Below, piece after piece: positions 1 through 43,622 of a stretch of 64,000 nt of DNA. The DNA is taken from assembly GCA_021797675.1 (NCBI GenBank), contig JAJZZH010000105.1, positions 7,472 to 71,471 of the forward strand, in the 5' to 3' direction. The position numbers were made by a program, and so were the translations under genes. The notes beneath the pieces were generated by a model. It searched no databases, was not told where the DNA came from, and saw only the letters and a program-made list of their open reading frames with translations. Source of the stretch: Bacillota bacterium (GTDB lineage Bacteria > Bacillota > Sulfobacillia > Sulfobacillales > Sulfobacillaceae). Position 1 is the first letter of the stretch. Each line of letters begins with the position of its first letter.

Positions 1-276
1 TGGGGATTCCCTTCTACCGGCGGTTGTCCCCATGCTTTGGAGCCATGGTGGGGATTCCCTTCTACCGGCGGTGGTCCCCATGCTTTGGAGCCATGGTGGG
101 GATTCCCTTCTACCGGCGGTTGTCCCCATGCTTTGGGGTCAAGCTGGGGATTCCCTTCTACCGGCGGTTGTCCCCATGCTTTGGAGCCATGGTGGGGATT
201 CCCCATCCATGCTCTGGGGTCATTGTGGATACCGCTCCTACCGTCGCATGTCCTACCGGCGGTTGTCCAGCGGAGG
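1..276. repeat. 48-bp tandem repeat array (unit tggggattcccttctaccggcggttgtccccatgctttggagccatgg), 4 full copies plus degenerate partial copies; may continue upstream of the window
   Basis: Direct reading: units at 1-48, 49-96, 97-144, 145-192 with 1-6 nt variants, then partial copies to ~276. There are no unique spacers, so it is not CRISPR-like. Confidence 0.85.
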
Positions 277-543
277 GCGTTCCACAGGCTGTCATTGAGC
301 AGTCAAGCTTACACCGGAACCGGTTGAAAGCACCCCACCAAACTCTCGGCCAACCCGGGGAAAACGCGGTGGAAGTGTGGCACCGGGCGTTTGGGGGAGG
401 TCTCCATCGACGCAAGTTAACTGAAGTTAAAAAATAATGTCCGCAAGTGAATCGTTTCAGGAAGGAATTTAGAAAAGCACGGAGAATTCCCGATATCAGG
501 TTGAAACGCTTCACTATCTGACAGCGAGGAGTCGAGGTGCGGG

Positions 544-1584
544 ATGGAAAAGATTACGCGTGCGGTGAAAATTCAAGAAGTAGCCAAGGCGGCGCAAGTG
601 TCCATCGCCACCGTCTCGTACGTCATGAACGGACGCGGCCATATTTCCCAGGAGACCCGGGAACGTGTGCTAAAGACCGCGGAGCGCCTGGGATACAAGC
701 CGAATTCGGCAGGGCGCGCGTTGGCTTCGCAACGCGGCCATGCGGTCGGGGTGATCTTGCCGATGGGCTCCAGCCTCCTGGACAGCATGATGGTTAACGT
801 CATGGCTGGCCTGGCGGACCATCTCCGCACGCACGCTTACGACTTGGTCCTATTTGCCTCCCAGTCGACCATCGCCGACACGTTGTCCGTGGTCTTCGAT
901 GCGCTTAAGACCAAGCGAATCAATGGCGTCGTATGCCTAGACCGGCGATCGCGCGACGTCGTGATTAGTGCGGTGCACGAAGCCGAAGTACCCATCGTTT
1001 GGCTGGGCCAGGTTCCCGACGAGGCCTGGGTGGATTTGGACCGCTACCGGGGCGGGCGCATCGCCACCCAATATTTGTTAGGGCTTGGTCACCACAGCAT
1101 CGTACACCTGGCGTTAAACAGCTCAGAGGGCCGCCTAATCCGCCAAGGATTCGAAGACGCCATGCGCGAGGTTTTGCCCTCTGACCGGGTGGTCGTCGAA
1201 GAGACCGATGGGACCATCGCCGGCGGCTATCAGGCGATGCACCGGCTCGGACTTTCGGGATTTCGCGCCACCGCCGTGTTTGCGGCCAGCAATTCGTTGG
1301 CCGAAGGCGTGTTACGGGCGGCGGGAGAACTCGGCCTGGCAGTGCCCCAGCAGCTTTCCGTGGTCGGCTTCGGTGACGCGGCACTCGTCGGGCATACCAT
1401 CCCGCCGTTGACCACGGTAATTTCCGACGGCTATGCCCTGGGGGTGCTCCTCGCCGAAGTCGCCTTGGACCGGGTGGACACCAACCGGGTGCGCGGGGCG
1501 TCGAGCGTGCCCTCCTTGCACGTCGGCGCCAGCTGTGCGCCGGCTGGCCACTATGAAACCCCGGGCCATTCGGCGGACCTCGAA
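544..1584 (+). CDS. LacI-family transcriptional regulator (HTH plus periplasmic-binding-like sugar sensor domain); no stop codon before the downstream debranching-enzyme domain
   Basis: N-terminus IQEVAKAAQVSIATVSYVMNG is a classic LacI HTH, followed by about 330 aa of PBP-like fold. It is the first ~347 codons of ORF 544..3603. Confidence 0.8.
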
Positions 1585-3603
1585 ATGATTAAGCGCGGGT
1601 GCACCTTCGCGATTTTTTCCCATCAGGCGACCATCGATCCCCTGCATCCCGGCAGCGGTCTGTTTGACGGGGATACGCGTCTGGTCCATCTCTACCGCGC
1701 GTATGCGGATGACGTTCTCCTGCGGCCCATTGCCGTGGAGCGCGACATACACCGCTTGACGTGGTCTTATGTCGTGCAGCATGCGGGATTTACCCGGCAC
1801 TTGCGTCGAACGCTCAGCCTATTTCCGGACCATTGGGAAGACACCTGGCAGTGGCGCCACTATGGGCAAAGCCCGTCGGAATGGCAATTGGCGATTCAAG
1901 TCGGCTGCGACTTTCGCGATGTGTTTGAGCTGCGCGGGGTGACGGCGAGAGACCACGGCCCGGTCGGTCTTGACCACCGGGAGGAACCGAGCCGCTATGG
2001 CTACGAAGGCCTGGATGGCATTGAGCGGTCGGTGGAGATCGAGGCTTCGCGCCCCCCGGGGGACTGGCAGGGAGACCATATTCGCTGGACGATCGGCGCC
2101 CAGGAGCCATCGGGTTCGCTAACCCTTCGGGTTTCCTGGCAAAATCCGGCGGTGCTCGCGCCGATGCGCAATCCGGTCGAAGATGCGGTGCCCTGGCCCA
2201 CCATCGAAACCAACCGACTGGATTGGAAAGCTGTCCTGGATCAGTCGTGCCAAGACCTGCGGTTGCTGCTTACCGATTTTGGCCAAGGCCCCGTATTGAT
2301 GGCGGGGCTACCTTGGTTCGGGACCTTGTTTGGGCGCGATGCGGTGCTGTCGGCGATGGAACTCCTCGAATGGGTGCCGACGGTGGCGGAGAACACGGTG
2401 GCAACCCTGGCCGCCTGGCAAGGAGCCCAAAACTTGCCCGACCGGGAAGAGGAGCCGGGAAAAATCCTTCACGAGATGCGACTCGGCGAATGGGCCAATC
2501 GTGGCATGGTACCCTTCGGACGCTACTACGGCTCAGTCGATGTAACGCCCCTATATATCAGTCTGTTGGCGGAGACCTGGCGGCGATCGGGGGATGATGC
2601 CTGGGCCAGCCTGTATTTGCCCGCCGCGCGGGCGGCTGCCGATTGGCTCGATCGCCAACGCTCCAAAGAGTGGAATCACCGTGTGGTGCGATTCGAACCG
2701 CTGGCTAGCGGAGGGCTTACCGTTCAATCCTGGAAAGATTCCGCGGACTCGATGGTGTACCCGGATGGACAGCGGGCCAATCCGCCCCTGGCGGTGGCTG
2801 AGGTGCAAGGGTATATCTATCAAGCACTCAAACATATGGCATGGATGCTGAGACAGGCCGGCGAGAACGCAACGGCTGAGCGCCTTGATCAGCAGGCATC
2901 CCGACTCCGGGAAAATTTTCATGACATTTTTTGGCAAGAAGCCCAACGCTATTATGCGATGGCCATTGACGGCGAGGGCAAGCCGCTTGACGTGCTGAGC
3001 TCCGACCCTGGGCACTGCCTGTGGACGGGCATCGTGCCCCCAGCGTTTCGTGCCGATGTGGTTCGCCGGCTAGTTGGCCATGCGTTGTTTAGCGGTTGGG
3101 GAATCCGCACCCTGGGGAGCGGGGAAGTGGCTTACGACCCCTATAGCTACCACCGAGGCAGCGTATGGCCGCACGACACGGCGATTGCGGTCGCCGGGAT
3201 GGCGCGGGCGGGCGCGCTCAACGAGGCGGCCCGGGTCGGCCAGGGGCTAATCGATGCCGCGTATCGCTTGCCTAACCACCGCTTGCCCGAACTCTTCGCC
3301 GGCGAAGGACGGGACGTGGCCGCGAGTCAGCCGTCGGTCTATCCTTCTGCCTGTGTACCCCAAGCTTGGGCGGCGGGCAGCCCGTGGCTGATTTTGCAGA
3401 GTTTGATGGGGCTCAGGATAGACGGCAGAGCGAAAGAGATTGCCATCCATCCCCTGCCAGCGGTCTTGCAGGATGTCTGGTTTCACATTGATGGTCTCGG
3501 TTTGACGTCGCAGGCGTCCATCTCACTGCGCGTTGACACCGAGCGGGCGACGGTGGACGGATTACCCCCGGACTGGACGATAAAGGGGGTGGTAGGCGGG
3601 TGA
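1585..3603 (+). CDS. Glycogen debranching enzyme-like protein (bacterial GDE_N domain plus amylo-alpha-1,6-glucosidase GDE_C domain), in frame with the upstream LacI ORF
   Basis: Internal Met MIKRGCTFAIFSHQ...GLFDGDTRLVHLY matches the GDE_N start. PVLMAGLPWFGTLFGRDAVLS...GSVWPHDTAIAV matches amylo-alpha-1,6-glucosidase. ATG at 1585 is in frame with 544. Confidence 0.75.
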   Translation: MIKRGCTFAIFSHQATIDPLHPGSGLFDGDTRLVHLYRAYADDVLLRPIAVERDIHRLTWSYVVQHAGFTRHLRRTLSLFPDHWEDTWQWRHYGQSPSEWQLAIQVGCDFRDVFELRGVTARDHGPVGLDHREEPSRYGYEGLDGIERSVEIEASRPPGDWQGDHIRWTIGAQEPSGSLTLRVSWQNPAVLAPMRNPVEDAVPWPTIETNRLDWKAVLDQSCQDLRLLLTDFGQGPVLMAGLPWFGTLFGRDAVLSAMELLEWVPTVAENTVATLAAWQGAQNLPDREEEPGKILHEMRLGEWANRGMVPFGRYYGSVDVTPLYISLLAETWRRSGDDAWASLYLPAARAAADWLDRQRSKEWNHRVVRFEPLASGGLTVQSWKDSADSMVYPDGQRANPPLAVAEVQGYIYQALKHMAWMLRQAGENATAERLDQQASRLRENFHDIFWQEAQRYYAMAIDGEGKPLDVLSSDPGHCLWTGIVPPAFRADVVRRLVGHALFSGWGIRTLGSGEVAYDPYSYHRGSVWPHDTAIAVAGMARAGALNEAARVGQGLIDAAYRLPNHRLPELFAGEGRDVAASQPSVYPSACVPQAWAAGSPWLILQSLMGLRIDGRAKEIAIHPLPAVLQDVWFHIDGLGLTSQASISLRVDTERATVDGLPPDWTIKGVVGG

Positions 3604-3764
3604 AACCGGAATGACCGCGTGGGCGCGCAGGGGACGAATCCGCCGTCGACCAGGATGCCGGAACCCGCAGAGAAGAATAGTCACGCATGCAAACGGGGCC
3701 TTCGCAAACGGTCCAATCGATGTCGCAGCTTTTCGACCAAGTCATTCCATTAAAGGAGGTAACG

Positions 3765-5051
3765 ATGATGATGCGTTGGACGAAGACCGGCCTGCCGATC
3801 GCCTTATCGGCGGCCATGACGGGAAGTTTGATGTTTCTGCCCGGGGTCACTCAAGCCCAAGGAGCACCGGTGACCCTCACCATTTCCACCTGGGATTCCG
3901 GCAGCGGGCTCGCCGCCTATCACAAGGGGATTGCCGCCTTTGAAAAGCTGCATCCCAACATCCGGGTGCAAATCGACAGCGTCTCCAGTCAATACTACGA
4001 GCCCAAATTGCTGACCCAATTGGCCAACGGCACCGGCCCCGACCTGATGCTGGTCGGGGACAGTCAAGTGCATGGGTTTGTTGCCAGCCACCAGCTGCTC
4101 AACCTCAATCCGATGCTCAGGCCTTATCATATCAATCCGAGCCATTTTTACAAGAGCGTGTGGCACGTCGGCATGCTGGGGGGCAAAGTCTATTTCGTTC
4201 CCAAGGACTGGTCCGACGAAGCGGTCCTGTACAACAAGACGATGTTCCAAAAGGCGCATTTGCCCTTCCCCAAGGCGGGCTGGACGTGGCAGCAGTTTGC
4301 GGCCGACGCCAAGAAACTTACCCTCGTCAAGAATGGGGTCACCGTGCAATATGGCGCCCAACTGCCGGGGACCTGGCTTCGGGCAGGAATCGAGGCGTTT
4401 GCCGGGGCGTGGGGCGGCCGTTTGATCAGTCCCAACGGCAAGACGGTCAATGGCTATCTCAATTCTCCCCAGACCAAGGCCGCGATTCGTTTCTTTCTGA
4501 ATTTGTACAATGTGGATCATGTGAGTCCGACCCCGACCCAGATGGCCGGCTATGGCAGTACGGACCTCTTTTTGACCAACCGGGTGGCGATGGAACCTAC
4601 GGGTCCGTGGAACGTCAGCCAGTACGAAGCCAAACCCGGTTTTCACTTCGGGGTGGCGCCGATGCCGCAGGGCCCCGCGCACAAGCCGTACACCATGATC
4701 TTCTGGGCCGGATGGGCGATCAACAAGCACACGCATCACCTGAAGCAGGCCAAGGCGCTGTTAGCGTTCTTTGCGTCGCCGACCTGGGCGAAAATTGATA
4801 GTCACTGGGCCATGCCGGGCCTGATTGACCGCTCGATTGTGGCGCAACAGGAGAAAAATCCGGGTCTAAAGCCTTTTTATGCGCAGGCCCCCCACGCCTT
4901 GCCGTTGGAGGTAACGGCTCCCTTGAACTGGGTGCAAGACGTGGAGCCAGCGTTGCAAACCATGATTGAGACGGCCACGGTCAATCCGCATACCAATCTC
5001 AACCAGTTGATCAACCAAACCGTGCGGAAGATCGACGCCAAGCTGAAGTAG
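3765..5051 (+). CDS. Sugar ABC transporter substrate-binding protein (solute-binding family 1) with signal peptide
   Basis: RBS aaaggagg 6 nt upstream of ATG. Signal sequence MMMRWTKTGLPIALSAAMTGSLMFLPGVTQAQG. Family-1 SBP-like sequence throughout. Confidence 0.85.
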   Translation: MMMRWTKTGLPIALSAAMTGSLMFLPGVTQAQGAPVTLTISTWDSGSGLAAYHKGIAAFEKLHPNIRVQIDSVSSQYYEPKLLTQLANGTGPDLMLVGDSQVHGFVASHQLLNLNPMLRPYHINPSHFYKSVWHVGMLGGKVYFVPKDWSDEAVLYNKTMFQKAHLPFPKAGWTWQQFAADAKKLTLVKNGVTVQYGAQLPGTWLRAGIEAFAGAWGGRLISPNGKTVNGYLNSPQTKAAIRFFLNLYNVDHVSPTPTQMAGYGSTDLFLTNRVAMEPTGPWNVSQYEAKPGFHFGVAPMPQGPAHKPYTMIFWAGWAINKHTHHLKQAKALLAFFASPTWAKIDSHWAMPGLIDRSIVAQQEKNPGLKPFYAQAPHALPLEVTAPLNWVQDVEPALQTMIETATVNPHTNLNQLINQTVRKIDAKLK

Positions 5052-5084
5052 CTGAAGAAGCATCATCGTCCAAAGAGGAGGGAA

Positions 5085-5110
5085 GGCCAGCCATCGGTCG
5101 ATGGCTGGCC
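5085..5110 (+). terminator. Perfect GC-rich stem-loop (ggccagccatcg...cgatggctggcc) between the SBP and permease genes; intra-operon attenuator or mRNA-stability hairpin
   Basis: 11-12 bp perfect inverted repeat read directly. No U-tract follows and the next gene starts 8 nt later. Confidence 0.5.
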
Positions 5111-5117
5111 GCATACC

Positions 5118-6050
5118 ATGGCAAGTCTCCATCCGGCTGCCTCGCAGGCCCAACCCCGGCGAAAACGCATGTCGTTGGCCGCCCAGCGCCAGCGCCTTTT
5201 CTACTGGCTGATTTCTCCGTGGATCTTTGGCTTCTTGGCGTTTGTCCTCGGGCCCATGGTATTCTCGGCGTATCTCAGCCTGACGCGCTGGAACTTGCTC
5301 AACCGCCCCGTCTTTATCGGTCTTGGCAACTACCAGGCGATGTTCAAGGATCCGCTCTTTTGGCAATCGCTGAAAGTCACCACGATTTACGCATTGGTCA
5401 GCGTGCCTTTGACCATGGCGTTCGGACTGTTCTTGGCCGTGTTGCTGAATCAAAGAGTGCGAGGGCTTTCCATGTTTCGCACGATTTTTTACCTGCCCTC
5501 GGTCATTTCCGGGGTCGCGGTGGCGGAAGTGTTCATGTGGGTCTTTAATCCCCAATTTGGGGTGCTCAACGTGTTTTTGTCCTATCTCGGCATTCACGGC
5601 CCGGGGTGGATTTCGAGCCCAACCTGGGCCCTGCCGGCGCTCATTTTGATGAGCCTCTTTGGGGTGGGCGGCCCCATGATCATTTTCCTGGCCGGTCTGC
5701 AAAATGTGCCGCCGGCATTGCTTGAGGCCGCGTCGCTGGACGGCGCGAGCAACTGGCGGCGGTTTTGGACGGTCGTCATTCCCCTGTTGACGCCGACGAT
5801 TTTGTTCAATTTGGTTCTCTCGATCATCAACCAATTTCAAGTATTTACGCAGGCCTACGTGATGACTCAGGGGGGGCCGCTCAATGCCACGCTGTTTTAT
5901 GTGTACTACCTATTTGAGAACGCGTTTCAGTACTTGAATTTTGGGTACGCGGCGGCCATGGCCTGGATCCTCTTTTTCATTGTGCTGGGGTTGACGATGA
6001 TCGTCCTAGCGAGCTCTGGCCGGTGGGTCTTCTACCAAGGAGGCGAATAG
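5118..6050 (+). CDS. Carbohydrate ABC transporter permease (MalF/UgpA-like)
   Basis: Multi-TM protein with EAA-type motif region (LEAASLDGASNWRRFWTVVIPLLTP). Confidence 0.85.
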   Translation: MASLHPAASQAQPRRKRMSLAAQRQRLFYWLISPWIFGFLAFVLGPMVFSAYLSLTRWNLLNRPVFIGLGNYQAMFKDPLFWQSLKVTTIYALVSVPLTMAFGLFLAVLLNQRVRGLSMFRTIFYLPSVISGVAVAEVFMWVFNPQFGVLNVFLSYLGIHGPGWISSPTWALPALILMSLFGVGGPMIIFLAGLQNVPPALLEAASLDGASNWRRFWTVVIPLLTPTILFNLVLSIINQFQVFTQAYVMTQGGPLNATLFYVYYLFENAFQYLNFGYAAAMAWILFFIVLGLTMIVLASSGRWVFYQGGE

Positions 6051-6051
6051 C

Positions 6052-6894
6052 ATGCGCCGAACCGGCAGGCTTTCGGAATATGTCACCCAAGCGTTCACCT
6101 ATCTGGCGTTGCTCGTCTTTAGCCTGGGAATGCTGGTGCCATTCTTTTGGATGGTATCTTCGTCGCTTAAGCCGAACTATGACGTCTTTCAGTTTCCTCC
6201 GGTGTGGATTCCCCATCCGCTCCAATGGGGGAACTATCCCCGGGCGCTGACGTTTGTCCCATTCTTGCGCTTTTTTATCAACACCGGAATTATCGCCGGC
6301 GCCGTGCTCATCGGCACGTTGGTTTCGAATACGCTCATTGCCTATGCGTTTGCCCGCTTAGAAGCGAAAGGTCGAAATGTCCTGTTTTACCTCGTGTTGT
6401 CCACCATGATGCTCCCCTATGCCGTCACCATGGTGCCGCAATACGCAATTTTCTCGCGGCTTCACTGGGTCAACACCTTTTCGCCGCTCATTGTGCCCAG
6501 TTATTTCGGCAATCCCTTTTTCATCTTCCTGCTGCGCCAGTTTTTCATGGGGATCCCCAAGGAAATGGAAGACGCGGCAGCTCTCGATGGGGCCGGTGTG
6601 TTCGCCACCATCTGGCGAGTTATTCTTCCCATGAGCTGGCCAGCGATGGTAACGGTCTGCATTTTTTCCATTCAGGGGACCTGGAACGACTTTCTCGGCC
6701 CCCTGCTCTATCTCAACAAGGAATCCCTGTTCACCGTTCAGCTCGGACTTCAGTACTTTACCGGCCAATACACCGGCGGCTGGAACTTGCTGATGGCGGC
6801 CAGCACGGTGATCCTGGCGCCGATCCTGGTGCTGTTTTACTTTGGACAGCGGCTTTTCATCCGCGGCATTGTCGTCGGCGGACTGAAAGAATAG
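6052..6894 (+). CDS. Carbohydrate ABC transporter permease (MalG/UgpE-like)
   Basis: Motif EDAAALDGAGVFATIWRVILPMSWPAM. Starts 2 nt after the previous gene. Confidence 0.85.
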   Translation: MRRTGRLSEYVTQAFTYLALLVFSLGMLVPFFWMVSSSLKPNYDVFQFPPVWIPHPLQWGNYPRALTFVPFLRFFINTGIIAGAVLIGTLVSNTLIAYAFARLEAKGRNVLFYLVLSTMMLPYAVTMVPQYAIFSRLHWVNTFSPLIVPSYFGNPFFIFLLRQFFMGIPKEMEDAAALDGAGVFATIWRVILPMSWPAMVTVCIFSIQGTWNDFLGPLLYLNKESLFTVQLGLQYFTGQYTGGWNLLMAASTVILAPILVLFYFGQRLFIRGIVVGGLKE

Positions 6895-8371
6895 GACTGC
6901 GGCCCAACGTTAAGGACGACGGCGGATCCGGCGGCGGGGTGACCGTCGTCCGGATTCGTCGCTGGGCTGCTGGGAAAACGGCCCGCCATCCGCCAACGCG
7001 TGGGATTCCTCAATCCGGTGGAGCGGAGTCGGCTATCGACCTCCCGTTGCCGCGATCGGAGGTGTCCAAGGGACCGTGGATTCCGATCCGGCGACATGCG
7101 CTACAGGCCACCTGGGCGGCCACGCTGTCTACATAGGCCCAGGGCCGCCAAACATAGATGACCTCTCGGTGTCCGCACCAGCGTTGAACGAGGTGAGACG
7201 TTTGCGGCAGACCCGTGGGTCGACTGGGTCCGAAGGCGTCCTCGGCACCGACATGGGTTGGCATCATTTTGAGCGATTGAATCGTACTTCGACCTCCTCG
7301 TCTATCGCCCGCCAGCGATTAACCGTTGGTGCGACGTATTACCGGTGGCACGCCCGCCGAGGGGCTTGTCACCTTGGCTTTACCAAAAATAACGTCAGCC
7401 CAGGGAAAAAGGTTACACCCATCCCTGAAAATTGCGGTCGGGATACCACGCTGGGATATCGTGGGCCGGGCAACCGCACGTACGCGGCCCGCAGTAGGCA
7501 GGAATACGGGTGGTGTGGAGCCTTGGATTGTCTGTCCTCGGCCAACCCCTGAGGTCCGAGGGTTGGCACTAACGCTGTTTGTGATCACTTCGGCCGTTCG
7601 CAGCGGTCATTAGATCCGAACGACCGTAGGACGAAAAAATCGGCAGTCTCGCGCGATGCGATGGATGGACTGCTGTGCACCGTCGCTCGCGGGCCTCCAT
7701 GATATTGCCGCCAGAACGCTGCGTTGGAGGACCCCGGCCCCCTTGCCTCGAAGTCCCGAGCCATCCCAATCCGGTGACGGCAAAGCCACCCTTACCCAAC
7801 CGCCGCGATGGTCCACCGCAGTGCAACGGAGGGACCGGGGTAGGGGGCGATGGCGCTCGGTGCGTTCCGGGTCACCCTGCTGTGCCGCACCGACTCCATC
7901 ACAACGGTTGCGGGCTGAAGGCGAGAGGTCGACGCCCTTCATGTTCGGGGCGCGAAGCCGTCCTGTATAATCAAAACGGCGGGCATGGGCTAGAACGCAG
8001 GCTGGCCCATGCATCCGAGGTGCGCGGACGTGGTATTGCGCACTGGTACAAAGGTCTGTGGCGTGGTCGGGTGGCCCTCAGGAAGACAGGATACTTCGAC
8101 ATCGACGACGGCACGGGAAAACGGATCGGTCAGGGCATATCGGCCAAGTATTGCCGACTACTTCCAAGGGTTAACGGATGGCAACAGGAAAGGATTTCGG
8201 CCGACGCCGGTGCCGCGCTCCCTCCCCATGGATACATCCAGGGGCTTGCGCGCGGCAATTTTGGTGAACGCGTGGATCATGGGGATCACGACGCCGTCTT
8301 CATGTGCTGGAGAAGGGAGGAAGCGGTGTTTCCTCCGGCCTGAACATCGGGGGGCCTCGCGCTGCAACGCG

Positions 8372-15600: not shown

Positions 15601-16651
15601 ACCCCAAAGCAGGATTGGGATTAGGCCGGAGACGGCCACGAATAAAACTGCGGCCCGCGGAAGAGCGAACAATTCCAGGCGTGCTTAAAAATGCCTAGAT
15701 CTGCGAGGTTTCTCGGTAGAGATGCGGAGATATGCTGAAGCACGTTACCGCGGTGGGGTTCTTTTGCAAGATGTCGCAAGCCTCCCAATATCTACCCAGC
15801 CGTTTAACTGGCCATCTGAGGGACGCGGATCGAAGCGTTCTGACGCGCCGACCTGCAGAGCGCTCGCCGCTTGGAATATTCTCGTTTCGTCCGGCTCCGT
15901 CGCCGCGTTGCCCTTGAACCTGCCCGCCCCAAAAAGGGCGGACATTGTATTGTGGGCGAACCACCATGGCTGCGTCGCGGGTCGTGAGACCCTGGGAGTG
16001 ACCCTCCTGACTCGCCACCGCTTATCCCGCCAGCCATGTCCCGGGGATCAGCCGGACTACGCCTTAACGCTCCCTGGAGGGGAACGGGACGGCGATACGT
16101 GTGGTTTCCACACGTCAGATCCTAATACCACCGTGTTAGAGGTGGTCGGTAGATGTTCGCCTGTTTTACCGTCGTATTCTGACGACGCGATACATTTTAC
16201 GTCTTCTACGATTGCGGGAGACGACCGCCAACGTATCCAATTGCCAAAGAGCGAACATGCGTATTTTAGCAAGAGATTTGCCTGATGGCAACGCCTTATA
16301 TCTCCGCTCTGAACGGCGGAGTTTTACGGCGCACCCTGATAAACTCAACAGTGGGGGGACTGCGGTTCCGGGCTCTGCCCAACCGAGCTTGGCGCGGCCG
16401 GGACAGAGCGCCTAACCCGGTTGGGCATTAGCCCCTGAGCGTCCACTCGCCGAACCACGCGGGCTTTGAACGCGCTGCGGTCGGAAGATCGGCGGGACAT
16501 TATCGAGCTCGCAGGTGATTTCGCGGAATTGGGTCCAACTGCGGTGGAACCATTAATTTCCGCGCCGAATACCCCTATATAGCGGGCCATCAACCACCGT
16601 CCGGAAAGCTTAACGGATCTCCACTCCAATGCTTGCTGAGGAGATGATGGG

Positions 16652-33521: not shown

Positions 33522-33532
33522 ATGCCGGCGGG

Positions 33533-35276: not shown

Positions 35277-36500
35277 TCAAGCGACCCAGTGCGAGGTGGC
35301 AAACAGCGAGACAAAAAGCGTGCCCAGGGCCAGGGAGGCGGTGAAATAGGCCAGGCGCGCTCGCGGATAGCGATCCAGGAGAATGCCCGTGGCCACGAAA
35401 ATGGGGAACGCCTCCAAGAGCAGGCGTGGCATGGACATCAAAGGTACGCCCTGGGCGGGATAGGTCAGCGGCACCAAGAGCGCTAAACCTCCGTAAAGCC
35501 ATAGATACGTCGGCATCCAGCGCAGCGACACGATCAGCACGACGATGCCGTAAACGGCAAACCAAAAATTATAGAAATTCATCGCCACCGGTTGGGGAAT
35601 GCCGCCATGAAAGAGCGCCGCCGGGGACAGGGCGATAGACGCCGATTGGTACGCGGTCACCACTCCCTGCCACAAGGTTTGCCAAAAAAAGGCGAAGTGC
35701 CGACCCCAGTTGGATTGGGCTTGTTCGAAGACCAAGGGATAGTGAAAGAGAGGCGTCAGATACCCCATATAAAGAAGGATGCCTAAGGGAATCATCGCCA
35801 CGGGCCAAAATTTGCGCAATCGGAGGCCATGCTGACGAAAAATAACCCAGGCGAGGGGAACCGCGAGCAAAATGCCGTACATACTGACCAGCACCGCCAG
35901 CCCCCCCAGGATTCCTGCGGGCCAATAGCGGCGGGTACGAAGACAATACATGGCGCTGATGGCCAGGGCTAGAAACAATGACTCGGAATAGACGGCCTGC
36001 GTGTAAAAGGCGGTGGGAAAGAACGAAAAAGCCATCACGGTAAACCACGCCACCCGTTCTCCGAAGTCGAGGGCGGTCAGTTTATAGAGCATCCAGCAGG
36101 CGACCGCCGTAGCCGCCCAGGAGACGAGGATGCCTCCGAGGGCCGTAGAGGCGCCAAGAAAGTGAATGGCCAGCGGGTAGAGGGGAAAGAAGGCGGTTGC
36201 CGTCGGCGTTCGGTAACCGTGTTGCGCAATGGTCAGATACCATTGGCCATCCCAGTGCGACCACAGTCCGCATAGCGCGCGGTAGATGAGGTTTGACGGC
36301 ACCGGCAGGACGCCTGGGGGCGACTCTACCCACGCATGAGGCAGATAGATATAGGCCAGCCCAGCTGTTTCAGCGAAGAACACATGAGCCACAAGGTAGA
36401 CCCAGCCCACCACGGACCAGGCGGGACGAAGGTTGACTGAGCGGGTCGCCAAGGCCCCGCGGTCGGCGACGGACGGGGTGGTGCCGAATCGTTTAGCCAT
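35277..36500 (-). CDS. Polytopic membrane glycosyltransferase, PIG-V/mannosyltransferase-like
   Basis: WSHWDGQWYLTIAQHGY...AFFPLYPL motif; about 10 TM helices. Confidence 0.5.
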   Translation of the reverse strand: MAKRFGTTPSVADRGALATRSVNLRPAWSVVGWVYLVAHVFFAETAGLAYIYLPHAWVESPPGVLPVPSNLIYRALCGLWSHWDGQWYLTIAQHGYRTPTATAFFPLYPLAIHFLGASTALGGILVSWAATAVACWMLYKLTALDFGERVAWFTVMAFSFFPTAFYTQAVYSESLFLALAISAMYCLRTRRYWPAGILGGLAVLVSMYGILLAVPLAWVIFRQHGLRLRKFWPVAMIPLGILLYMGYLTPLFHYPLVFEQAQSNWGRHFAFFWQTLWQGVVTAYQSASIALSPAALFHGGIPQPVAMNFYNFWFAVYGIVVLIVSLRWMPTYLWLYGGLALLVPLTYPAQGVPLMSMPRLLLEAFPIFVATGILLDRYPRARLAYFTASLALGTLFVSLFATSHWVA

Positions 36501-37275
36501 GGCGCCTCCTCCTGAGCTGGTGATGATGCCGACGGGATTTCGGCCGCAGGGACGACAATGAGGAAAGGGTCAGCTGGTCTCCCCGCACATAGTTCCCTAA
36601 CTTGAAAAGCTGGTAAGGGGTGAGATTGGTGGAGGAGGCGGTGGCTACCCCCACCAACGAACTCGCTTCCAACGGCGTGAGTTGGGGCAAGGTGGTCATC
36701 AGTTGGTTCAGAAAGGCAAGCTCTTGCGCAGGATTGCCTCGGCCTTTCGGGTATCCCAAGATTCGCAGGGAGTGGGCGACGCTGTCCTCGGCGGGCCACG
36801 TCTGCGTGTCTTTGATCAGCACGTTCAACACGGTTTTCAAAGCGCTAACGGGCATGAAAAAGTAACGCGTAGCGGAAAATCCCGTTGATCGGTCGATGGC
36901 TTCCGAGACAATTTGCGGAGAAACCATCGATACTCCCTGCCAGGCAGGAACCCGGAGATAGCCTCCGGTGCCGTTGGGGAGGCGCAATGCCGTCTTTCCA
37001 GGGATGGGGATAACGGTCAATCTGTCGTCGCGCGGATGCACGGTGGCCAAGAATCCGATGAGTCCTGGACGACTGGTTGGCCCGTCCACGATAACCGTAA
37101 TCGCCAGCGGATTGACGGGGCTGATCGGCATTACCACGCGGCGGGTGGTAACCTTAGCGTGAAACACGAGCGAAACAACGAAGATCAGACCGCCGATACC
37201 GAGGACGAGACCTGCCAGCAATCGTTGACCGAGGGTAAATCCCATGTCCATCTGTGACAGATTTTTGAGCGCCAT
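36493..37275 (-). CDS. LytR-CpsA-Psr (LCP)-like cell-envelope protein
   Basis: Single N-terminal TM helix followed by ...TVIVDGPTSRPGLIGFLATVHPRDDRLTVIPIPGKT... resembling the LCP core. Overlaps the upstream glycosyltransferase by 8 nt. Confidence 0.4.
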   Translation of the reverse strand: MALKNLSQMDMGFTLGQRLLAGLVLGIGGLIFVVSLVFHAKVTTRRVVMPISPVNPLAITVIVDGPTSRPGLIGFLATVHPRDDRLTVIPIPGKTALRLPNGTGGYLRVPAWQGVSMVSPQIVSEAIDRSTGFSATRYFFMPVSALKTVLNVLIKDTQTWPAEDSVAHSLRILGYPKGRGNPAQELAFLNQLMTTLPQLTPLEASSLVGVATASSTNLTPYQLFKLGNYVRGDQLTLSSLSSLRPKSRRHHHQLRRRRHG

Positions 37276-37731
37276 CCGACTTCCTTTCGGTCTTGTCTGC
37301 CAGTCCGCATCCGGCGCGCCGTATTCGGCTACCGGTCTCCTGCCCGTTTGGGGATTACGCTGCTGCCCTCAGGGGTGGGGAGAATTTCGTCCGATTGAGC
37401 GGAATTCGCGTTGCGGTCCTTCGATCGTCGACCGTCCGGCTCAATCGGCGAGCCTGCCGTCGCCATAACCCCTGCCCCTCCAGACAGTGACGGAAAGGTT
37501 TCGGGCCGCGGTGCGAACGGACCGGGTGGGCGGTCAAAATTTACGGTGCCCAACGCGGCATCAGGAGCCGGCAGCATGTTTTGCGCTGCGGCGGTCGGCA
37601 TGGCTCCGGGTGGTGCACTTCGTCGATCGTACGAATCCGCGGTTCCCCCACAAGCGCCGCACGGGTAACGGCCGAGATCGGGAAAGCCTGTTCGGGGGAT
37701 CATCCCGTGATTCGGCACATACGTTATTCTA

Positions 37732-38247
37732 TCATGTTTGCGATGCAGGACCGCCTTTCGCAGACGAAGAAACCCAGCCATGGCGTTGCACAATCCTCTC
37801 CAAGAGCTTATCCAACGCCGGCTGCATCAGGGCATCGACCTCCTCGAAGCGGTCGCTGCCATAGGGATCGAAGATTTCGTCGGCCTCGGCCCGACCGGGT
37901 GTCCAGGACAATAACCGGCGGGCCTTGGGGCGGCATCCGGCCGGAAGGTCGCGGAGACGGGAACGGTCCATCACCACGATATAGTCGAAATGGTTGCAGT
38001 CATCCGGTCGAATTTGACGGGCGAGGATTTCCGACCAGGAGACGCCGGGCCGAGCCAGAACGGCCCGGGTACCCGGATGGGGCGGGCTGCCCACGTTCGA
38101 AGGACTGATCGCTCGCGACTCGACGTCGATTTGTCCGCGGAGCCCCGCTGGGGCCCCCCGGGGACGAAAGTAGGCGTGGGCCATGGGAGATCGGCAGATA
38201 TTTCCCGTGCAAACCAAGAGGACGCGAACCGTGGACTGGGTGAACAT
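37732..38247 (-). CDS. Low-molecular-weight protein-tyrosine phosphatase
   Basis: VLLVCTGNICRSPMA P-loop. Confidence 0.85.
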   Translation of the reverse strand: MFTQSTVRVLLVCTGNICRSPMAHAYFRPRGAPAGLRGQIDVESRAISPSNVGSPPHPGTRAVLARPGVSWSEILARQIRPDDCNHFDYIVVMDRSRLRDLPAGCRPKARRLLSWTPGRAEADEIFDPYGSDRFEEVDALMQPALDKLLERIVQRHGWVSSSAKGGPASQT

Positions 38248-38260
38248 GCGGCGCCGTCTC

Positions 38261-38914
38261 CTATCGCACGTGAATGCTAACCTCGCGAATGACCACCGGA
38301 TGGACCGGTTGGCTCAGTTCGCGGGTCTTGGGGTTTTTCCGGACTTTTCCTGCTGCGATTTTCTCGACGACCCGCATCCCCCGGGTGATTCGGCCTAACT
38401 CCGTGTAGTTCGGAGTCACGTTGAGGCTTTCGCTGGCGGGACCGGTGCAGATAAAGAACTGGCTGCCGTTGGTGTTCCGGTTGCCGCCGCGATTGGCCAT
38501 GGCCACAATGCCTGGCTGATACGGAAAGTGGGGGAGGCCGCCTTTCCATGAATAGCCCGGTCCTCCCGTGCCGCGGTTAAGCGGGTCACCGGTTTGGATC
38601 ATAAACGTCTTGATCACGCGAAAAAAGGTATCGCCGTTGAAAAAGTGATGCTTCGCCAAAAAGATGAAATTGTTGGTGGCGTGGGGGTCGCGTTTGGCAA
38701 ACAATGTCATCTGAAAGCGCCCTGCGGACGTAAGGAAGTCGGCGATATAGGTCTTTTGGGGGTTGATGATCATCGCCGGCGGTTTTTTCCAGCGCAAAAA
38801 CCGCCCGCTGGCGCGCACGGTGGCGCGGGGGTGGCCGCTGGCGGCCAGCCCGCATCCGGTGAAAAGTGCCAGGCCAATGGCCGCCGCGCCAGTCAACGTA
38901 ATCGGACGTTGCAA
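38261..38914 (-). CDS. Cyclophilin-type peptidyl-prolyl isomerase lipoprotein
   Basis: Lipobox LFTGCGL; FFRVIKTFMIQTGDP cyclophilin motif. Confidence 0.85.
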   Translation of the reverse strand: MQRPITLTGAAAIGLALFTGCGLAASGHPRATVRASGRFLRWKKPPAMIINPQKTYIADFLTSAGRFQMTLFAKRDPHATNNFIFLAKHHFFNGDTFFRVIKTFMIQTGDPLNRGTGGPGYSWKGGLPHFPYQPGIVAMANRGGNRNTNGSQFFICTGPASESLNVTPNYTELGRITRGMRVVEKIAAGKVRKNPKTRELSQPVHPVVIREVSIHVR

Positions 38915-39142
38915 GAATTTCTCCTACCTTCCGTTAACCTGTAACATGCAAATACCCATCCCCAGCGTGCCAAGTGGGTCTGGGCTGTTTGCCTGAATAG
39001 AGTCTTGGTTATTGTGGTTCACAACCATTTTACGAGAGTGGGGCGAATTTCCCAAGTCGGCTGGCCCGAATCCTTGCCGCGGCGCCGGCCGTAGTTTCGG
39101 TTTTTGATCGAGAAAGGGCTAGACTGAACAGGGAGGTCGAAA

Positions 39143-40123
39143 TTGATGCGGGCGATCGCGTTGACAGAATATGGCGGTCCAGAGGTGCTGAGGCTATCCG
39201 AGGTGGAAGACCCCGTCTACGGGCCGGAAGAGGTCTTGATTCGAATCCGGGCGGCGGGGGTTAACCGTGCCGACCTGCTACAGCGCGAAGGACGGTATCC
39301 ACCGCCCGCTCCGGCACCCAAGGTTGAAATTCCGGGATTGGAATGCGCGGGAGAAGTGGCCGCGGTCGGTGCGCGGGTCGGTCTATTCAGGCCCGGTCAG
39401 CGCGTGGCGGCCTTGGTCCCCGGTGGCGGCTATGCAGAAAAAGTCGCCGTTCACGAACGGTTGGTCTGGTCGGTGCCGACAGGCTTGAGCTCGACGGAAG
39501 CGGCCGCGGTGCCCGAGGCGTTCCTGACGGCCTATGACGCGCTGACCCAGCAGGCCGGATTGACGGCCGGGCAGTGGGTGCTGATCCACGCGGCCGCTGG
39601 CGGCGTGGGCTCCGCGGCGGTTCAACTCGCGACCTGGATGGGAACTCACGTGGTGGCGACGGTGGGGTCGGACGAAAAGGCGGCGTGGGTTCGCGGCCTG
39701 GGGGCGGACTACGTGGTCAACTATCGGCAGCAGACGTTCCTGGAGGTAATTCGCGCCTACACTCCGGGGATGGACGCGGTTTTGGACTTCGTCGGGCAGA
39801 CGTATTGGGAGGACAATCTCGAGAGTCTCGTACCGGGCGGCGTCTTGGTCGTGGTGGGGACGCTGTCGGGCGACCGCGTGCAGGCCCGACTGGGCGTGTT
39901 GCTCGGTCGGCGGCTCACGGTGCGGGGCACAGCCTTGCGTTCGCGCCCGCTGGAACTCCGCTTCGCCCTCGTCCAGCAGTTCGTCCGTCGGGTGCTGCCG
40001 GCGCTGGCCCAGGGGCGGCTGAAACCGCTGGTCGACGCCACCTTTCCTCTGAGCGAGGCGGCTCGGGCGCATGCCTACATGCAGGAAAATCGGGTGCAGG
40101 GAAAAATTGTGCTTACGGTATAA
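39143..40123 (+). CDS. NAD(P)H:quinone oxidoreductase (zinc-type ADH/MDR superfamily)
   Basis: Medium-chain dehydrogenase/reductase fold and AAGGVGSAAVQLA nucleotide-binding motif. Confidence 0.8.
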   Translation: MMRAIALTEYGGPEVLRLSEVEDPVYGPEEVLIRIRAAGVNRADLLQREGRYPPPAPAPKVEIPGLECAGEVAAVGARVGLFRPGQRVAALVPGGGYAEKVAVHERLVWSVPTGLSSTEAAAVPEAFLTAYDALTQQAGLTAGQWVLIHAAAGGVGSAAVQLATWMGTHVVATVGSDEKAAWVRGLGADYVVNYRQQTFLEVIRAYTPGMDAVLDFVGQTYWEDNLESLVPGGVLVVVGTLSGDRVQARLGVLLGRRLTVRGTALRSRPLELRFALVQQFVRRVLPALAQGRLKPLVDATFPLSEAARAHAYMQENRVQGKIVLTV

Positions 40124-40178
40124 TGGCTTAGCGTTAAAGTCTTGTGATGGGAAATGGGTCGCGGCGTTCCTCCGAGTT

Positions 40179-41180
40179 TCAGCGGCCCGGGGGGATGGTT
40201 AGATACGTCCGGATCCGATCCAAGACTTCAGTGAAGCCGGCTGCGCTTCGTTCGACGTCCTGCGGGATGCGGCCACCGGCGGCCCGCATGTGGCCGCCGC
40301 CGCCGAAGAGGCCGGCCATGAGTCGGGCGGCATCGACGTGCTCGTCGCTGCGCGCCGACAGCCTGCCATCTTGTTTGGCGACTACGACCAAATTGTAGCC
40401 GGTTGACAGCAGACGATGGGCCACAGGATTGATGGAGCCTTCTTCTTCGAGAAAAATGCCCGCTATCCGCAGCCCGGCCGTGGTCAGCGTCCGCACCTTG
40501 GTCAGCGTGCGTTCCACGTAGGCCGCCTCCTCCTGGATTAATCTGGCGAGCAGCCGTCCCTCGTCGGGATGGAAGGGAGCCCAGCCTTGGTCGAACCGAG
40601 TGCGGTACCACTCGAAGCCCAGATGGCGAAAGAGCCGGGCGAGATCTTGGCCAAATTCGTGCTGCGGCAACCACAGATCGTAGGCTTCGACGACGGCCAC
40701 CAGCCGGTCCCAGGCAGGCGACGGTTCAATCCATTTCCGCTCGATAGCATAGTCATAGAGCAGATGGGATCCGGCTCGTCCTACGACAATGGTCGTTTTG
40801 GGCTCCGCAGCCAAGGCGAGCGCACTGACGTGGTGGTCCAGCAACGCCGTGATATCCTGTTGTACGGTAAGCCAGGCAGCCAACGGAATCGAGACGTCGG
40901 CCAGATAAATTGGGGCCTGGGGATGCCGCCCTACCAGGTCGGTCACCGCCTCCCCGGCGCCATCCGGTTCGACAAAAATTGGCTGCAGACCGTGGGCCAG
41001 GCCAATCACCGCTGCCGTTGCGCCATCCAAACACTGCGCGTGGGTAATCAAGTAGCCATTCACCGTTGTCGCCCCCCCTGTACTGTTATTGTAATGGTTT
41101 TGGGGGACCGAGAGGAATGCGGCGCCGAAAGCGGCCGCCGCCAGATCCGAGGACTTGACCGGATGGCAGAACGATTGCAT
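40179..41180 (-). CDS. DHH-family phosphoesterase (NrnA-like oligoribonuclease/pAp phosphatase)
   Basis: ITHAQCLDGATAAVIGL, DHHVSA and GGGHMRAAGG motifs. Confidence 0.75.
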   Translation of the reverse strand: MQSFCHPVKSSDLAAAAFGAAFLSVPQNHYNNSTGGATTVNGYLITHAQCLDGATAAVIGLAHGLQPIFVEPDGAGEAVTDLVGRHPQAPIYLADVSIPLAAWLTVQQDITALLDHHVSALALAAEPKTTIVVGRAGSHLLYDYAIERKWIEPSPAWDRLVAVVEAYDLWLPQHEFGQDLARLFRHLGFEWYRTRFDQGWAPFHPDEGRLLARLIQEEAAYVERTLTKVRTLTTAGLRIAGIFLEEEGSINPVAHRLLSTGYNLVVVAKQDGRLSARSDEHVDAARLMAGLFGGGGHMRAAGGRIPQDVERSAAGFTEVLDRIRTYLTIPPGR

Positions 41181-41486
41181 GCTAAGAATAATCAAAGGTC
41201 TGGGTGGGGAAACGGCCGCACGGTGCGGAACTCCGGATTCTCCGCCGATGGCCAAGCATGGATTCCGCCGGGGGGCTGCGCCGAGTCCGGGGAAGGTCCC
41301 GACCTTGAGATTGAGGCTATACGCCAATTCGCCCGGTAGGGCGAACCCCATCGAGCGAGCACGGCCCCTGGAAGGGATCTTAAATACCCCAGCCAGGCGG
41401 TCGAGAAAGGAACCGGGAGACGGGAGTGCATCCCTCAAGGACCCGGTGGATGTTAAAATGATCCCTACAAGACAGAGGAGTGTCTC

Positions 41487-42416
41487 ATGAATTCATTGGA
41501 TAAGGTGTTGTTGAACGTGTTGGAAGCGGTAGGGAATACGCCGATGGTTCGTCTTCAGCGCATTCCTTCCGACGAAGGTGCTCAGGTGGCCCTCAAGCTG
41601 GAGTCGATGAATCCCGGCGGCAGCGCCAAGGACCGGATTGCGCTGTCGCTCATCGCCGCCGCCGAGGAGGAGGGCCGGTTGCGGCGGGGAGGAACCATCG
41701 TCGAAGCCACCGCGGGCAACACGGGGATCGCGCTGGCGATGGCGGCGGCGGTGCGTGGCTATCATGCACTCTTTTTTGTGCCCGATAAGATGAGCAGGGA
41801 TAAAATTCGGCTGCTCCAGGCGTACGGCGCCGAGGTGCGTGTCGTCAAAGACGTTCCCCGCGAGGATCCCGAGAACTATCAGAACCTGGCTCGCATGGCG
41901 GCGGAGCAAATGGACAACGCGGCTTACATGGGCCAATTCGAGCTGGCCGCCAATCCCATGGCGCACTATCGAACCACGGGACCAGAAATTTGGCGCCAGG
42001 CAGGCCACGCCCTGGCGGCGTTTGTCGCCGGCGCGGGCACCGGCGGCACGATTTCCGGCGTCGGGCAGTACCTCAAAGAACAGGACCCGTCCATCCAGAT
42101 TGTGGGTGCCGACCCGGTCGGCTCGATTTTCACCGGCCCCTTTCAGCCCTTTCGCATTGAGGGGATGGGGGAAGATTACTACCCGTCAACGCTAGACACC
42201 CGTGTCGTGGACCGCTGGGCCGCCGTATCCGACGATGAGGCATTCACCATGGCCAAACGCTTGGCCCGCGAAGAGGGGTTGCTGGTGGGCGGGTCGACGG
42301 GGGCAATGGTCGTGGTCGCCCTGCAGACGGCCGCCAAGCTGCCTCCTGACCGGCTGGTCGTGGCGTTGGCCGCGGACACGGGGAGAAACTATTTGAGCGG
42401 ATTTTTTGCCGAATAG
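41487..42416 (+). CDS. Cysteine synthase / PLP-dependent CBS-family enzyme
   Basis: NTPMVRLQRI...SMNPGGSAKDRIA PLP-lysine motif. Confidence 0.85.
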   Translation: MNSLDKVLLNVLEAVGNTPMVRLQRIPSDEGAQVALKLESMNPGGSAKDRIALSLIAAAEEEGRLRRGGTIVEATAGNTGIALAMAAAVRGYHALFFVPDKMSRDKIRLLQAYGAEVRVVKDVPREDPENYQNLARMAAEQMDNAAYMGQFELAANPMAHYRTTGPEIWRQAGHALAAFVAGAGTGGTISGVGQYLKEQDPSIQIVGADPVGSIFTGPFQPFRIEGMGEDYYPSTLDTRVVDRWAAVSDDEAFTMAKRLAREEGLLVGGSTGAMVVVALQTAAKLPPDRLVVALAADTGRNYLSGFFAE

Positions 42417-42546
42417 GCTCGGATGGGTAAGACGTCTGAGCAACGGAGATCGCCCGCAAAGTCTCGAAGAAAACCGGTCGACGCCATGGACGCGATTATG
42501 AAGGCCCGGCTCCGCCGGGTGCTCGCTTTCGGGCGATCCGTATCAG

Positions 42547-43269
42547 GTGGAAATTCTCCGACGCCAGGGTCGCTACCAAGTCCGAATCACCGTCGATGAA
42601 TCTCCGGCCCCTGTTCAGACGTCCGCACGCCACGGCTGGGTGGGCGTGGATACCAACAGCACTGTTTTGGCTCTCTGTCACGTGTTGCCGAACGGCAATC
42701 CCCACGCCTTCGCGACGATCGGCGACCCCCGTCTCTTCGATGTCCGGTCGACCCAACGCGATGCGTTGGTGGGGCAGCTGGCGCGGGACACGGTTCACTG
42801 GGCGAAGCAACGCGGAGCCGGTCTGGTCGTGGAAGACTTGCAGTTCATCCACGATCGGGAGGTGAGCGCCAAGTTTAACCGCGTGACGCACCAGTTTACT
42901 TACCGGGCCTTGCTGACGGCGATCGAACGCCAGGCCGCGCGGGAAGGCGTCGCCTGGCGGAAAGTCAAACCGGCGTATACCTCGATCGTCGGACGGTTCA
43001 AGTATCATCCGCAATACGGGATGAGCGTGCATCACGCCGCGGCGCTCGTGATCGGGTGCCGAGGCGGGCTGAAAGTCCGCCGGGAGAACGTCCCCAAAGC
43101 CTTGCGGCTTTGGATGCAAGCCCAGCATCAATGGAACGATCCGTCTTATCGAAAAAATGATTGGAGCACGTGGGCGCGTATCAAACGAGTGATGGCAAAG
43201 ACGTTGGCATCGCACCATCAGTATTTGAGTGCCTGGTTAGGGTATCGCAAGACGTTATTCTCCGAATGA
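42547..43269 (+). pseudogene. TnpB-like (IS605 OrfB) RuvC-domain relic: N-terminally truncated, zinc finger lost, RuvC-III Asp replaced
   Basis: RYQVRITVDE...GWVGVDTNS gives RuvC-I, LVVEDLQF gives RuvC-II, and LLTAIERQAAREGVAWRKVKPAYTSIVGRF gives the TnpB PayTS motif. No CxxC pairs remain, and VHHAAALVIG replaces DvNAAiNI. Confidence 0.55.
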
Positions 43270-43468
43270 CCCACATCGCATTCCCCCGTCGCCACCACGT
43301 GGCGAAAGGAGCGACGGGGCATCTTGATGAGGGCCGAGTGCTGAGGGTCCCACGGGATGGACACCGGATCGAACCGAAACCCCGGTTCGATCTCTTCTCC
43401 CTCCAGGCTCCTTGGCGGTGAGCGAGGGAAACGCATCCTCGCTCGATGGGGCGAGAGCCACCCCCGAG

Positions 43469-43622
43469 CAGACAAATGACGGTAGGAATGAATCCCCACC
43501 CCAACCCCACAGCATGGGGACAAATGACGGTAGGAATGAATCCCCACCCCAACCCCACAGCATGGGGACAAATGACGGTAGGAATGAATCCCCACCCCAA
43601 CCCCACAGCATGGGGACGAATC
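43469..43622. repeat. 48-bp tandem repeat array x3 (unit atgacggtaggaatgaatccccaccccaaccccacagcatggggacaa); inverted, diverged homologue of the array at 1-276
   Basis: Read directly. The reverse complement ttgtccccatgctgtggggttggggtggggattcattcctaccgtcat aligns with the first unit ttgtccccatgctttggagccatggtggggattcccttctaccggcgg. Confidence 0.85.

Follow-up and report, generated by a model that had tools for sequence, protein, structure and literature searches.

A stretch of 64,000 nt from contig JAJZZH010000105.1 of a Bacillota bacterium (family Sulfobacillaceae), hereafter called the window, carries two arrays of a 48-bp tandem repeat, A and B, which lie about 43 kb apart in opposite orientations. 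A first-pass annotation, made from the sequence alone, had noted that the arrays bracket the DNA between them and had suggested that they mediate large inversions or mark the ends of an integrated element. Our analysis points to a different explanation, namely that the arrays are likely to represent a low-copy, non-autonomous mobile tandem repeat and that A and B are independent insertions rather than the ends of a 43-kb element. Array A is located between an amino-acid permease gene, which lies outside the window, and a gene encoding a fusion of a LacI-type repressor with a glycogen-debranching enzyme (GDE) at 544-3603. Array B is located in the remains of an insertion sequence (IS), between the open reading frame (ORF) 42547-43269 and a regulator gene (43783-44589, HTH_3/MmyB-like). 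The arrays and the IS features around array B are as follows.

1..264, + strand: array A, four regular 48-bp units at 1-192 followed by a composite or diverged unit at 193-264.
43474..43617, - strand: array B, three 48-bp units (AAATGACGGTAGGAATGAATCCCCACCCCAACCCCACAGCATGGGGAC on the + strand), read as a 144-bp insertion.
42449..43694, + strand: IS607-type relic (type 1) without tnpA, with the right terminus ...TTTTTAACCAGG.
42547..43269, + strand: TnpB-like gene remnant, the C-terminal 240 codons, with the RuvC-like motifs GVDTN, VVEDL, AYTS and HHAAALVIG.
43270..43473, + strand: IS 3' non-coding region upstream of the insertion site, with hairpins including one at 43420-43444.

Tandem Repeats Finder reported a 48-bp array at 1-203 (4.2 copies, 93% matches) and another at 43471-43621 (3.1 copies, 99% matches), and each array was near-identical internally. 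Read directly, array A continued through a diverged, apparently nested unit to position 264, with GTC at 265-267, and its third unit carried the variant block GGGTCAAGC. Array A is truncated by the window start, where the unit register opens exactly at base 1, and look-ups of the window proteins near it returned no contig longer than ~20 kb. Considering both the register and these look-ups, it is probable that the array is also cut by the contig end. The limits of array B are ambiguous by the 3-nt GAC. In a common register, the unit of array A is TGGGGATTCCCTTCTACCGGCGGTTGTCCCCATGCTTTGGAGCCATGG and that of array B, once reverse-complemented, is TGGGGATTCATTCCTACCGTCATTTGTCCCCATGCTGTGGGGTTGGGG. 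The consensus units matched at 36 of 48 positions, and an inverted-repeat finder paired 26-172 with 43471-43617 over 147 nt at 76% complementarity. The arrays are therefore homologous when one is reverse-complemented, as had been claimed, and they share the blocks TTGTCCCCATGCT, TGGGGATTC and CTACCG as described, but their divergence is ~25% rather than the ~30% given in the first-pass annotation. A scan of the window with core patterns gave 8 and 7 matches, of which only the one at 40918, with three mismatches, lay outside the arrays; shuffled sequences were expected to give 0.6 and 1.6 matches, and none of 100 shuffles reached the observed counts. The longest exact word common to A and B was 13 nt, and base composition was flat across both arrays. 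No Rfam family scored above threshold for the arrays, and permissive thresholds returned only sub-threshold microRNA and CRISPR direct-repeat noise.

Array B adjoins a TnpB relic and an XRE-type regulator, as the first-pass annotation had stated. The product of ORF 42547-43269 showed 89% identity to residues 261-506 of an intact 506-aa relative (P0001) and a partial match to the TnpB family NF040570 (E=9.5e-15, 55 bits against a cutoff of 100). Approximately the first 230 codons of the TnpB-like gene are gone, homology to P0001 beginning at residue 235, and the IS relic is frameshifted near 42540. The reconstructed TnpB-like protein had 74 relatives, the intact ones being ~506 aa long; their source label is "IS200/IS605 family accessory protein TnpB-related", and the named ones come from Sulfobacillus. 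Because a tnpA gene encoding a MerR-type helix-turn-helix (HTH) and a Resolvase domain overlaps the start of the 506-aa TnpB-like gene in intact copies (L018/L019, L021 and L023), these copies were read as IS607-type. Both IS types described here terminate in GG, as IS607-family elements typically do (PMC6188088). As a separate observation, the 506-aa TnpB-like family (P0001-P0062) carries Pfam PF27229 SSO2105_N at its N-terminus and no zinc-finger insertion. It reads SVHHAAALVIG at the third RuvC aspartate site (canonically D-x-NAA), even in the intact P0001, and it may be nuclease-dead or use an altered catalysis.

To the left of array B, window 42449-43477 aligned with L020 4703-5760 at 81% identity, and to the right, window 43615-43695 aligned with L020 5754-5834 at 91%. 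In the empty IS sequence, ...CCCCCGAGCAGAC is followed directly by GAATCCTGTGAGG..., and the window carries three 48-bp units exactly at this junction. Five intact IS copies (L018/L019, L020, L021, L022 and L023) have the empty site, GAGCAGAC joined to GAATCC, and run uninterrupted from ...GAGCAGAC into GAATCCTGTGAGGAC... (GCCGGC at that place in L018), the array being absent. Since the site is empty in five intact copies of the same IS, array B reads as 144 bp cleanly inserted in the non-coding 3' region of the IS. It sits 77 bp from the right terminus ...TAACCAGG (window 43694, ...AACCAGG), which is common to all copies and beyond which they diverge. An array at the identical IS site was found in locus L009, from the metagenome-assembled genome (MAG) "Bacillota bacterium TL2-1.bin20", where the IS is in a different genomic context and ~650 bp of it is deleted. 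The L009 units have their own variants fixed throughout, CAACCCTA for CACCCCAA and AAGTG for AAATG, in keeping with the earlier observation that each array homogenises locally. We also considered whether L009 and L005, another array locus, were adjacent 8-kb chunks of one contig, with inverted A- and B-type arrays around a TnpB-like gene; this was rejected, because homology to the intact copies starts at the chunk boundary and does not enter L005.

The empty sites also bear on two explanations that would tie the arrays to the IS itself. One is that they are native subterminal repeats of IS607-family ends, acting as binding sites for the serine transposase TnpA. TnpA does bind short, directly repeated motifs at IS607-family ends (PMC6188088), IS607-type right ends are close to three of the four array sites, and an intact tnpA lies beside the array of locus L008 (see below). 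However, the array is wholly absent from five intact copies of array B's IS, unit motifs are not found at IS ends, no IS remnant lies beside array A, and the known IS607 motifs are short, no more than ~80 bp from the termini, and not 48-bp tandem units. We therefore regard a native origin as very improbable. The other explanation sees in the array beside the TnpB-like gene an emerging guide array, or one of CRISPR type, that arose from the omega-RNA region; on the + strand, array B does lie 3' of this gene, where TnpB guide RNAs are encoded. We give it next to no credence: the units are identical and head-to-tail, with no spacers; the empty sites mark the unit as foreign to the IS; it also occurs without TnpB nearby (array A and locus L007); and the TnpB-like gene here is a pseudogene. 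The arrays had no Rfam CRISPR match above threshold, and no cas genes were found among the annotated neighbours. The IS 3' region may have an RNA structure of its own. The hairpin at 43420-43444 (GAGCGAGG/CCTCGCTC) differs from its counterpart at ~5700-5730 of L020 (GCGTGGGG/CCCCACGC) by fully compensatory changes, which suggests that an RNA structure, perhaps a scaffold like that of an omega-RNA, is conserved there.

When one genome per species was scanned, the unit core was detected in two Bacillota MAGs only, plus a chance hit, and the arrays there had periods of 48, 49 and 82 bp. Further loci were reached via ORFs that gene callers had drawn through arrays, P0078 leading to L026 (3 units) and P0080 to L027 (6.1 units). 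A protein database search with concatenated conceptual array translations found nothing, nor did a viral contig scan and a plasmid BLAST for the unit; a DNA pattern scan of JGI metagenomes gave two single-match loci without a 48-bp array, which were taken as chance. The family is so far known only from a narrow group of MAGs labelled Bacillota, apparently Sulfobacillus-like. It is a short non-coding repeat with a basic unit of 48 bp and variants of 49 and 82 bp, arranged head-to-tail at eight loci that represent four independent sites.

A non-coding "backbone" was common to loci L005, L008, L026 and L027, and its array-proximal part was present in L007. In L008 it comes after an intact IS607 tnpA (NF033518, 208 bits against a cutoff of 110), and in L026, L027 and the window (15753) it stops at a common point, ...GCGG, followed by unrelated sequence. 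On the basis of the preceding transposase gene and the common end, the backbone was read as the right-end region of a second IS607-type element, which is represented in the window by one fragment.

15624..15753, + strand: array-less fragment of the backbone right end, ending ...GCGG at 15753.

Downstream of this fragment, 15913-16343 showed 93% identity to L026 6872-7295, so that a seemingly orthologous locus has a 3-unit array in L026 and none in the window at 15624-15753. The backbone has two array sites, with arrays in opposite orientations. L008 and L007 carry an array at site 1, which is unoccupied in L026 and L027; at site 2, an array is present in L026, L027 and L005 but missing from L008. 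Together with the IS of array B, this makes three pairs of filled and empty sites, which demonstrate insertion. When all arrays were placed in one orientation, their phase was constant: a flanking GAC directly preceded the array in 8 of 8 cases, and the last full unit ended in GGGGAC in 7 of 8, after which the flank resumed the empty-site sequence, while the L005 array trailed into a partial unit. Array A, array B and the backbone loci had mutually unrelated flanks, and homology stopped exactly at the array edges. The first-pass annotation had allowed that a ubiquitous intergenic repeat, scattered in many orientations, would undo its reading of the two loci; the unit family comes near to this, being present at unrelated loci and in both orientations in related genomes, but it is low-copy rather than ubiquitous.

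Sequence variants within the arrays provide further information on their history. In L008, a unit with a 34-bp internal insertion is tandemly duplicated (82 bp, 99% identity), which shows array growth by local duplication. The array A variant block GGGTCAAGC and nested unit recur in L005 and L027, and the array B variant recurs in L009. The 49- and 82-bp variants also bear on whether the arrays encode 16-residue protein repeats, a 48-bp unit corresponding to 16 codons. In one of the two orientations, none of the three frames is closed by a stop; the peptide GDSxLPxxVPMLW of frame 2 is common to A and B, where it is encoded with two synonymous differences; and gene callers drew ORFs through some arrays. 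Against a coding role, these two variants break the frame, and the frames called differ by locus; the array ORFs match no protein family, and their hits in two protein databases were other array read-through ORFs and weak, unrelated repetitive sequences. In addition, array B is in the non-coding region of an IS, and the ORF read through it overlaps the oppositely oriented regulator gene. A coding origin is thus extremely improbable. One unrelated database ORF of 16-residue repeats, P0082 (GIPACWNLANAFGVIV), has an FGVI-GIP stretch as in one unit frame; the resemblance may be due to chance or to a distant family of 48-bp arrays in a different organism.

To compare the arrays within the species, we fetched contigs by exact-protein look-up; those used were at least 99.9% identical to the window. 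At 99.95% identity, L001 was collinear from array A inward (window 69-11882) and L012 across array B (window 35487-48464), and no same-species contig reached both arrays. At array A, alleles of ~0.6 units (L002 and L004), 1.6 units (L025) and 2.6 units (L001) were found, against at least 4.2 in the window; the distance from the permease gene to the LacI-GDE gene was 728, 776 or 824 bp, the window having at least two units more. At array B, L012 had 2 units and the window has 3. There are thus four length alleles at A and two at B, although short-read collapse possibly contributes to these counts. The 776-bp allele in L025 includes a recombinant unit, GAGCCATGC, which argues for real unequal exchange over collapse by the assembler.

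These contigs, together with the gene content between the arrays, bear on the proposal that the inverted arrays delimit a functional unit of 43 kb, which would be either an integrated or mobile element ending at the arrays or a segment inverted between them, recurrently or as a programmed event. In its favour, the arrays are homologous and inverted, and a 25.9-kb contig of the TL2-1.bin20 MAG likewise holds one array of type A and one of type B in opposite orientations. However, that contig and the window interior have no genes in common. The 43 kb encode aconitase, galactokinase, an amidase, glycosyltransferases, cysteine synthase, alcohol dehydrogenase and a sugar ABC transporter, with a few unrelated mobile genes, so that the interior is ordinary chromosome with core metabolism and uniform composition and GC content. 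No tRNA gene was found in the window and no recombinase gene adjoining array A or B, and the only integrase-core (rve) gene inside the 43 kb belongs to an unrelated IS at 11650-12960. The flanks of A and B are unrelated, and array B is demonstrably inserted within an IS. Efficient homologous inversion needs an exact match longer than 13 nt; arrays that are ~75% identical, with no more than 13 identical bases in a row, would therefore be poor substrates. The collinearity from each array inward, a comparison between strains that the first-pass annotation had called for, argues against inversion of the 43 kb in those assemblies only, since no contig spans both A and B. Taken together, a role as element ends conflicts with the interior, the flanks and the IS relic, a role in large inversions conflicts with the short exact matches and the collinear contigs, and we regard the 43-kb unit as barely tenable.

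The favoured explanation is therefore insertion of a small mobile repeat. Whole units would have inserted immediately 3' of a GAC trinucleotide and, because the unit itself ends in GGGGAC, no duplication would be visible beyond GAC. The array would afterwards grow, shrink and homogenise locally, presumably by slippage or unequal exchange. A and B would then be diverged sub-lineages, the former in an ordinary intergenic region and the latter in the right-end non-coding region of an IS607-type element that later decayed to a TnpB-like pseudogene, and their inverted orientation and 43-kb spacing would be incidental.

Right termini of IS607-type elements are found within ~80-300 bp of three of the four independent sites, so that our first guess at the mobilising enzyme would be a serine transposase of the IS607 type working in trans; our second guess would be an IS200/IS605-type Y1 (HUH) transposase. 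The latter corresponds to a more specific proposal, that the unit resembles repetitive extragenic palindromes (REPs) or palindrome-associated transposable elements (PATEs) and was moved as single-stranded DNA by a Y1 transposase or a REP-associated tyrosine transposase (RAYT), the GAC target being regenerated at the unit 3' end so that head-to-tail insertion builds the arrays. Insertion 3' of a fixed target without duplication is a hallmark of IS200/IS605 elements, and all the insertions described here lie 3' of one trinucleotide, beyond which nothing is duplicated. The unit also contains CGGTAG (compare GTAG of REPs), and folding gave a CCCCA-N5-TGGGG hairpin with a 5-bp stem, located 2 nt from the unit 3' end. 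In addition, a tnpA of the IS200 family (NF033573, 126 bits with a cutoff of 55) is located 640 bp away from the array in L027. By contrast, the duplicated 82-bp variant points to local duplication and not to re-insertion, a serine recombinase with a short crossover core would be expected to leave the same junction signature, the hairpin stem has 5 bp only, and no Y1 transposase gene was found in the window or at the loci other than L027. This proposal is thus unlikely, if conceivable. A strong REP-like hairpin in the unit had been considered and was dropped, since folding gave only weak structure. Near the L027 Y1 gene (1811-2248), we also observed four palindromes (GGTTTCGAYRTCGAAACC) ~60 bp apart, at 1423-1640 and upstream of the gene, which may be end hairpins of the IS200/IS605-family IS or a REP-like cluster.

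Extending the favoured explanation, the 48-bp unit might be a minimal non-autonomous transposon smaller than any described miniature inverted-repeat transposable element (MITE), excised and then integrated at GAC sites by a resident IS607-type serine or Y1 transposase, with a preference for transposase-coated IS607 right ends and with arrays arising by self-targeted insertion, the target being restored by every unit; we consider this version decidedly doubtful. Several observations weigh against mobility of the unit or against its link to a particular enzyme. The hairpin potential of the single-stranded unit was weak and indistinct from that of shuffled sequence (z -0.5 to -2.1), no unit motif recurred at the IS ends, and no transposase-binding motif was identified in the unit. 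The Y1 tnpA of L027 lies beyond the backbone terminus, so that its adjacency may be coincidental, and the enrichment of arrays at IS right ends could simply reflect hitch-hiking or tolerance in junk DNA. Approximately four independent insertion sites are known, all of them from fragmentary metagenome assemblies, and copy number in the source genome is known from the window only. Collapse of tandem repeats by short-read assemblers could have produced some of the variation in copy number. Finally, precise deletion of arrays from the "empty" IS copies would weaken the case for insertion, though not the rejection of the arrays as brackets of a 43-kb unit.

Other features of the window were observed in passing. 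The flanks of array A had no similarity to IS or backbone sequences and no TnpA or TnpB relics. The LacI-GDE gene downstream (544-3603, + strand) encodes a 1019-aa fusion of a LacI-type repressor (HTH and sugar-binding domain) with a glycogen-debranching or glycoside hydrolase (GH)-type glycosidase domain. It lies directly upstream of the sugar ABC transporter genes, and such a regulator-enzyme fusion is unusual. The IS at 11650-12960 (+ strand) contains a 436-aa ORF with an integrase-core (rve) domain, pointing to an IS transposase; contig L001 tracks the window to 11882 and then diverges, so that in L001 the IS is either missing or was left unassembled. A ParE toxin/antitoxin gene pair at ~10824-11368 (- strand), as called in the sister contig L001 (18410-18954), adjoins this IS and a dispersed repeat, the three forming a small mobile-DNA patch within the 43-kb segment. 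The dispersed repeat (~100-190 bp; 9895-9995) was also found at L001 17481-17581 and 19468-19653 and at L005 144-330. It shows 86-97% identity across the window, the sister MAG and the unrelated TL2-1.bin20 MAG, and it may be a small mobile element. At 13718-15490 (- strand), an ORF with RRXRR (PF14239, profile positions 79-160 only) and HNH domains appears to encode an IscB-like protein without the N-terminal RuvC-I part; it is probably a relic, and its first ~250 codons look over-extended. An 83-nt sequence occurs twice in inverted orientation at 89% identity (8186-8268, + strand; 27485-27567, - strand). It has a long GC-rich stem followed by AATTTT, like a terminator or attenuator, and no Rfam match. 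The copy at 27485-27567 overlaps the 5' end of ORF 27031-27543 (- strand), and the copy at 8186-8268 lies within two overlapping mechanical ORFs, ~230 bp upstream of a gene called at ~8498 in other assemblies; the sequence may be a common cis-regulatory leader or a small repeat.

These results remove a false lead, as the 43-kb segment is not an island and shows no sign of acting as an invertible segment. They also describe, in Sulfobacillus-like Bacillota, a small repeat family not described before, for which three pairs of filled and empty sites and the invariant GAC at the junction provide unusually clean evidence of insertion. How repeats of the type of mycobacterial interspersed repetitive units (MIRUs) or of BOX elements spread is unclear, and the defined junctions together with the suggestive link to IS607 right ends make this family a tractable case. 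In practical terms, the arrays break short-read assemblies, and they could serve as variable-number tandem repeat (VNTR) markers for strain tracking in acid-mine and bioleaching communities. Their importance would rise if a transposase were shown to move the 48-bp unit.

In the literature, we found no description of such a repeat in Sulfobacillus. The pair of arrays differs from a composite transposon in that the interior is housekeeping DNA and synteny with the same-species contigs continues across the inner array edges. The arrays differ from CRISPR arrays in that the units abut without spacers, and from MITEs in that they lack terminal inverted repeats, the only invariant feature being GAC at both junctions. 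Array B and the backbone arrays are hosted by elements of the IS607 type with a terminal GG, but the 48-bp arrays are not native to those ends. With REPs and bacterial interspersed mosaic elements (BIMEs) mobilised by RAYTs, and with the PATEs of IS200/IS605 elements, the unit shares a short, non-autonomous nature, a GTAG-like block, a hairpin and a fixed target without duplication. Unlike REPs and BIMEs, however, its hairpin is very weak and its units are strictly direct tandem repeats rather than inverted pairs, and where a RAYT would be expected none was found, one IS200-type tnpA lying near one array (L027). The closest resemblance is to MIRU minisatellites and to the boxB arrays found in the BOX elements of pneumococci. 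In Streptococcus pneumoniae, a BOX element consists of boxA, boxB in variable number, and boxC; the larger arrays are the more variable, and the elements insert into each other and into other repeats (PMC3049150). The family described here is likewise a small interspersed non-coding repeat comparable to the boxB module (~45 bp, variable tandem number), but it has no conserved flanking modules around its arrays, unlike the boxA/boxC frame with its terminal inverted repeats. The MIRUs of Mycobacterium tuberculosis are, according to PMC3635867, minisatellite-like VNTR loci with strain-variable copy number. Our arrays resemble them in having ~50-bp head-to-tail units at several non-coding loci with apparently variable copy number, and differ in that there is no sequence relation, the phylum is another, and insertion is documented by filled and empty sites and by the GAC junction. 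MIRUs are typically intercistronic within operons, whereas most of the sites described here lie inside IS607-type right ends.

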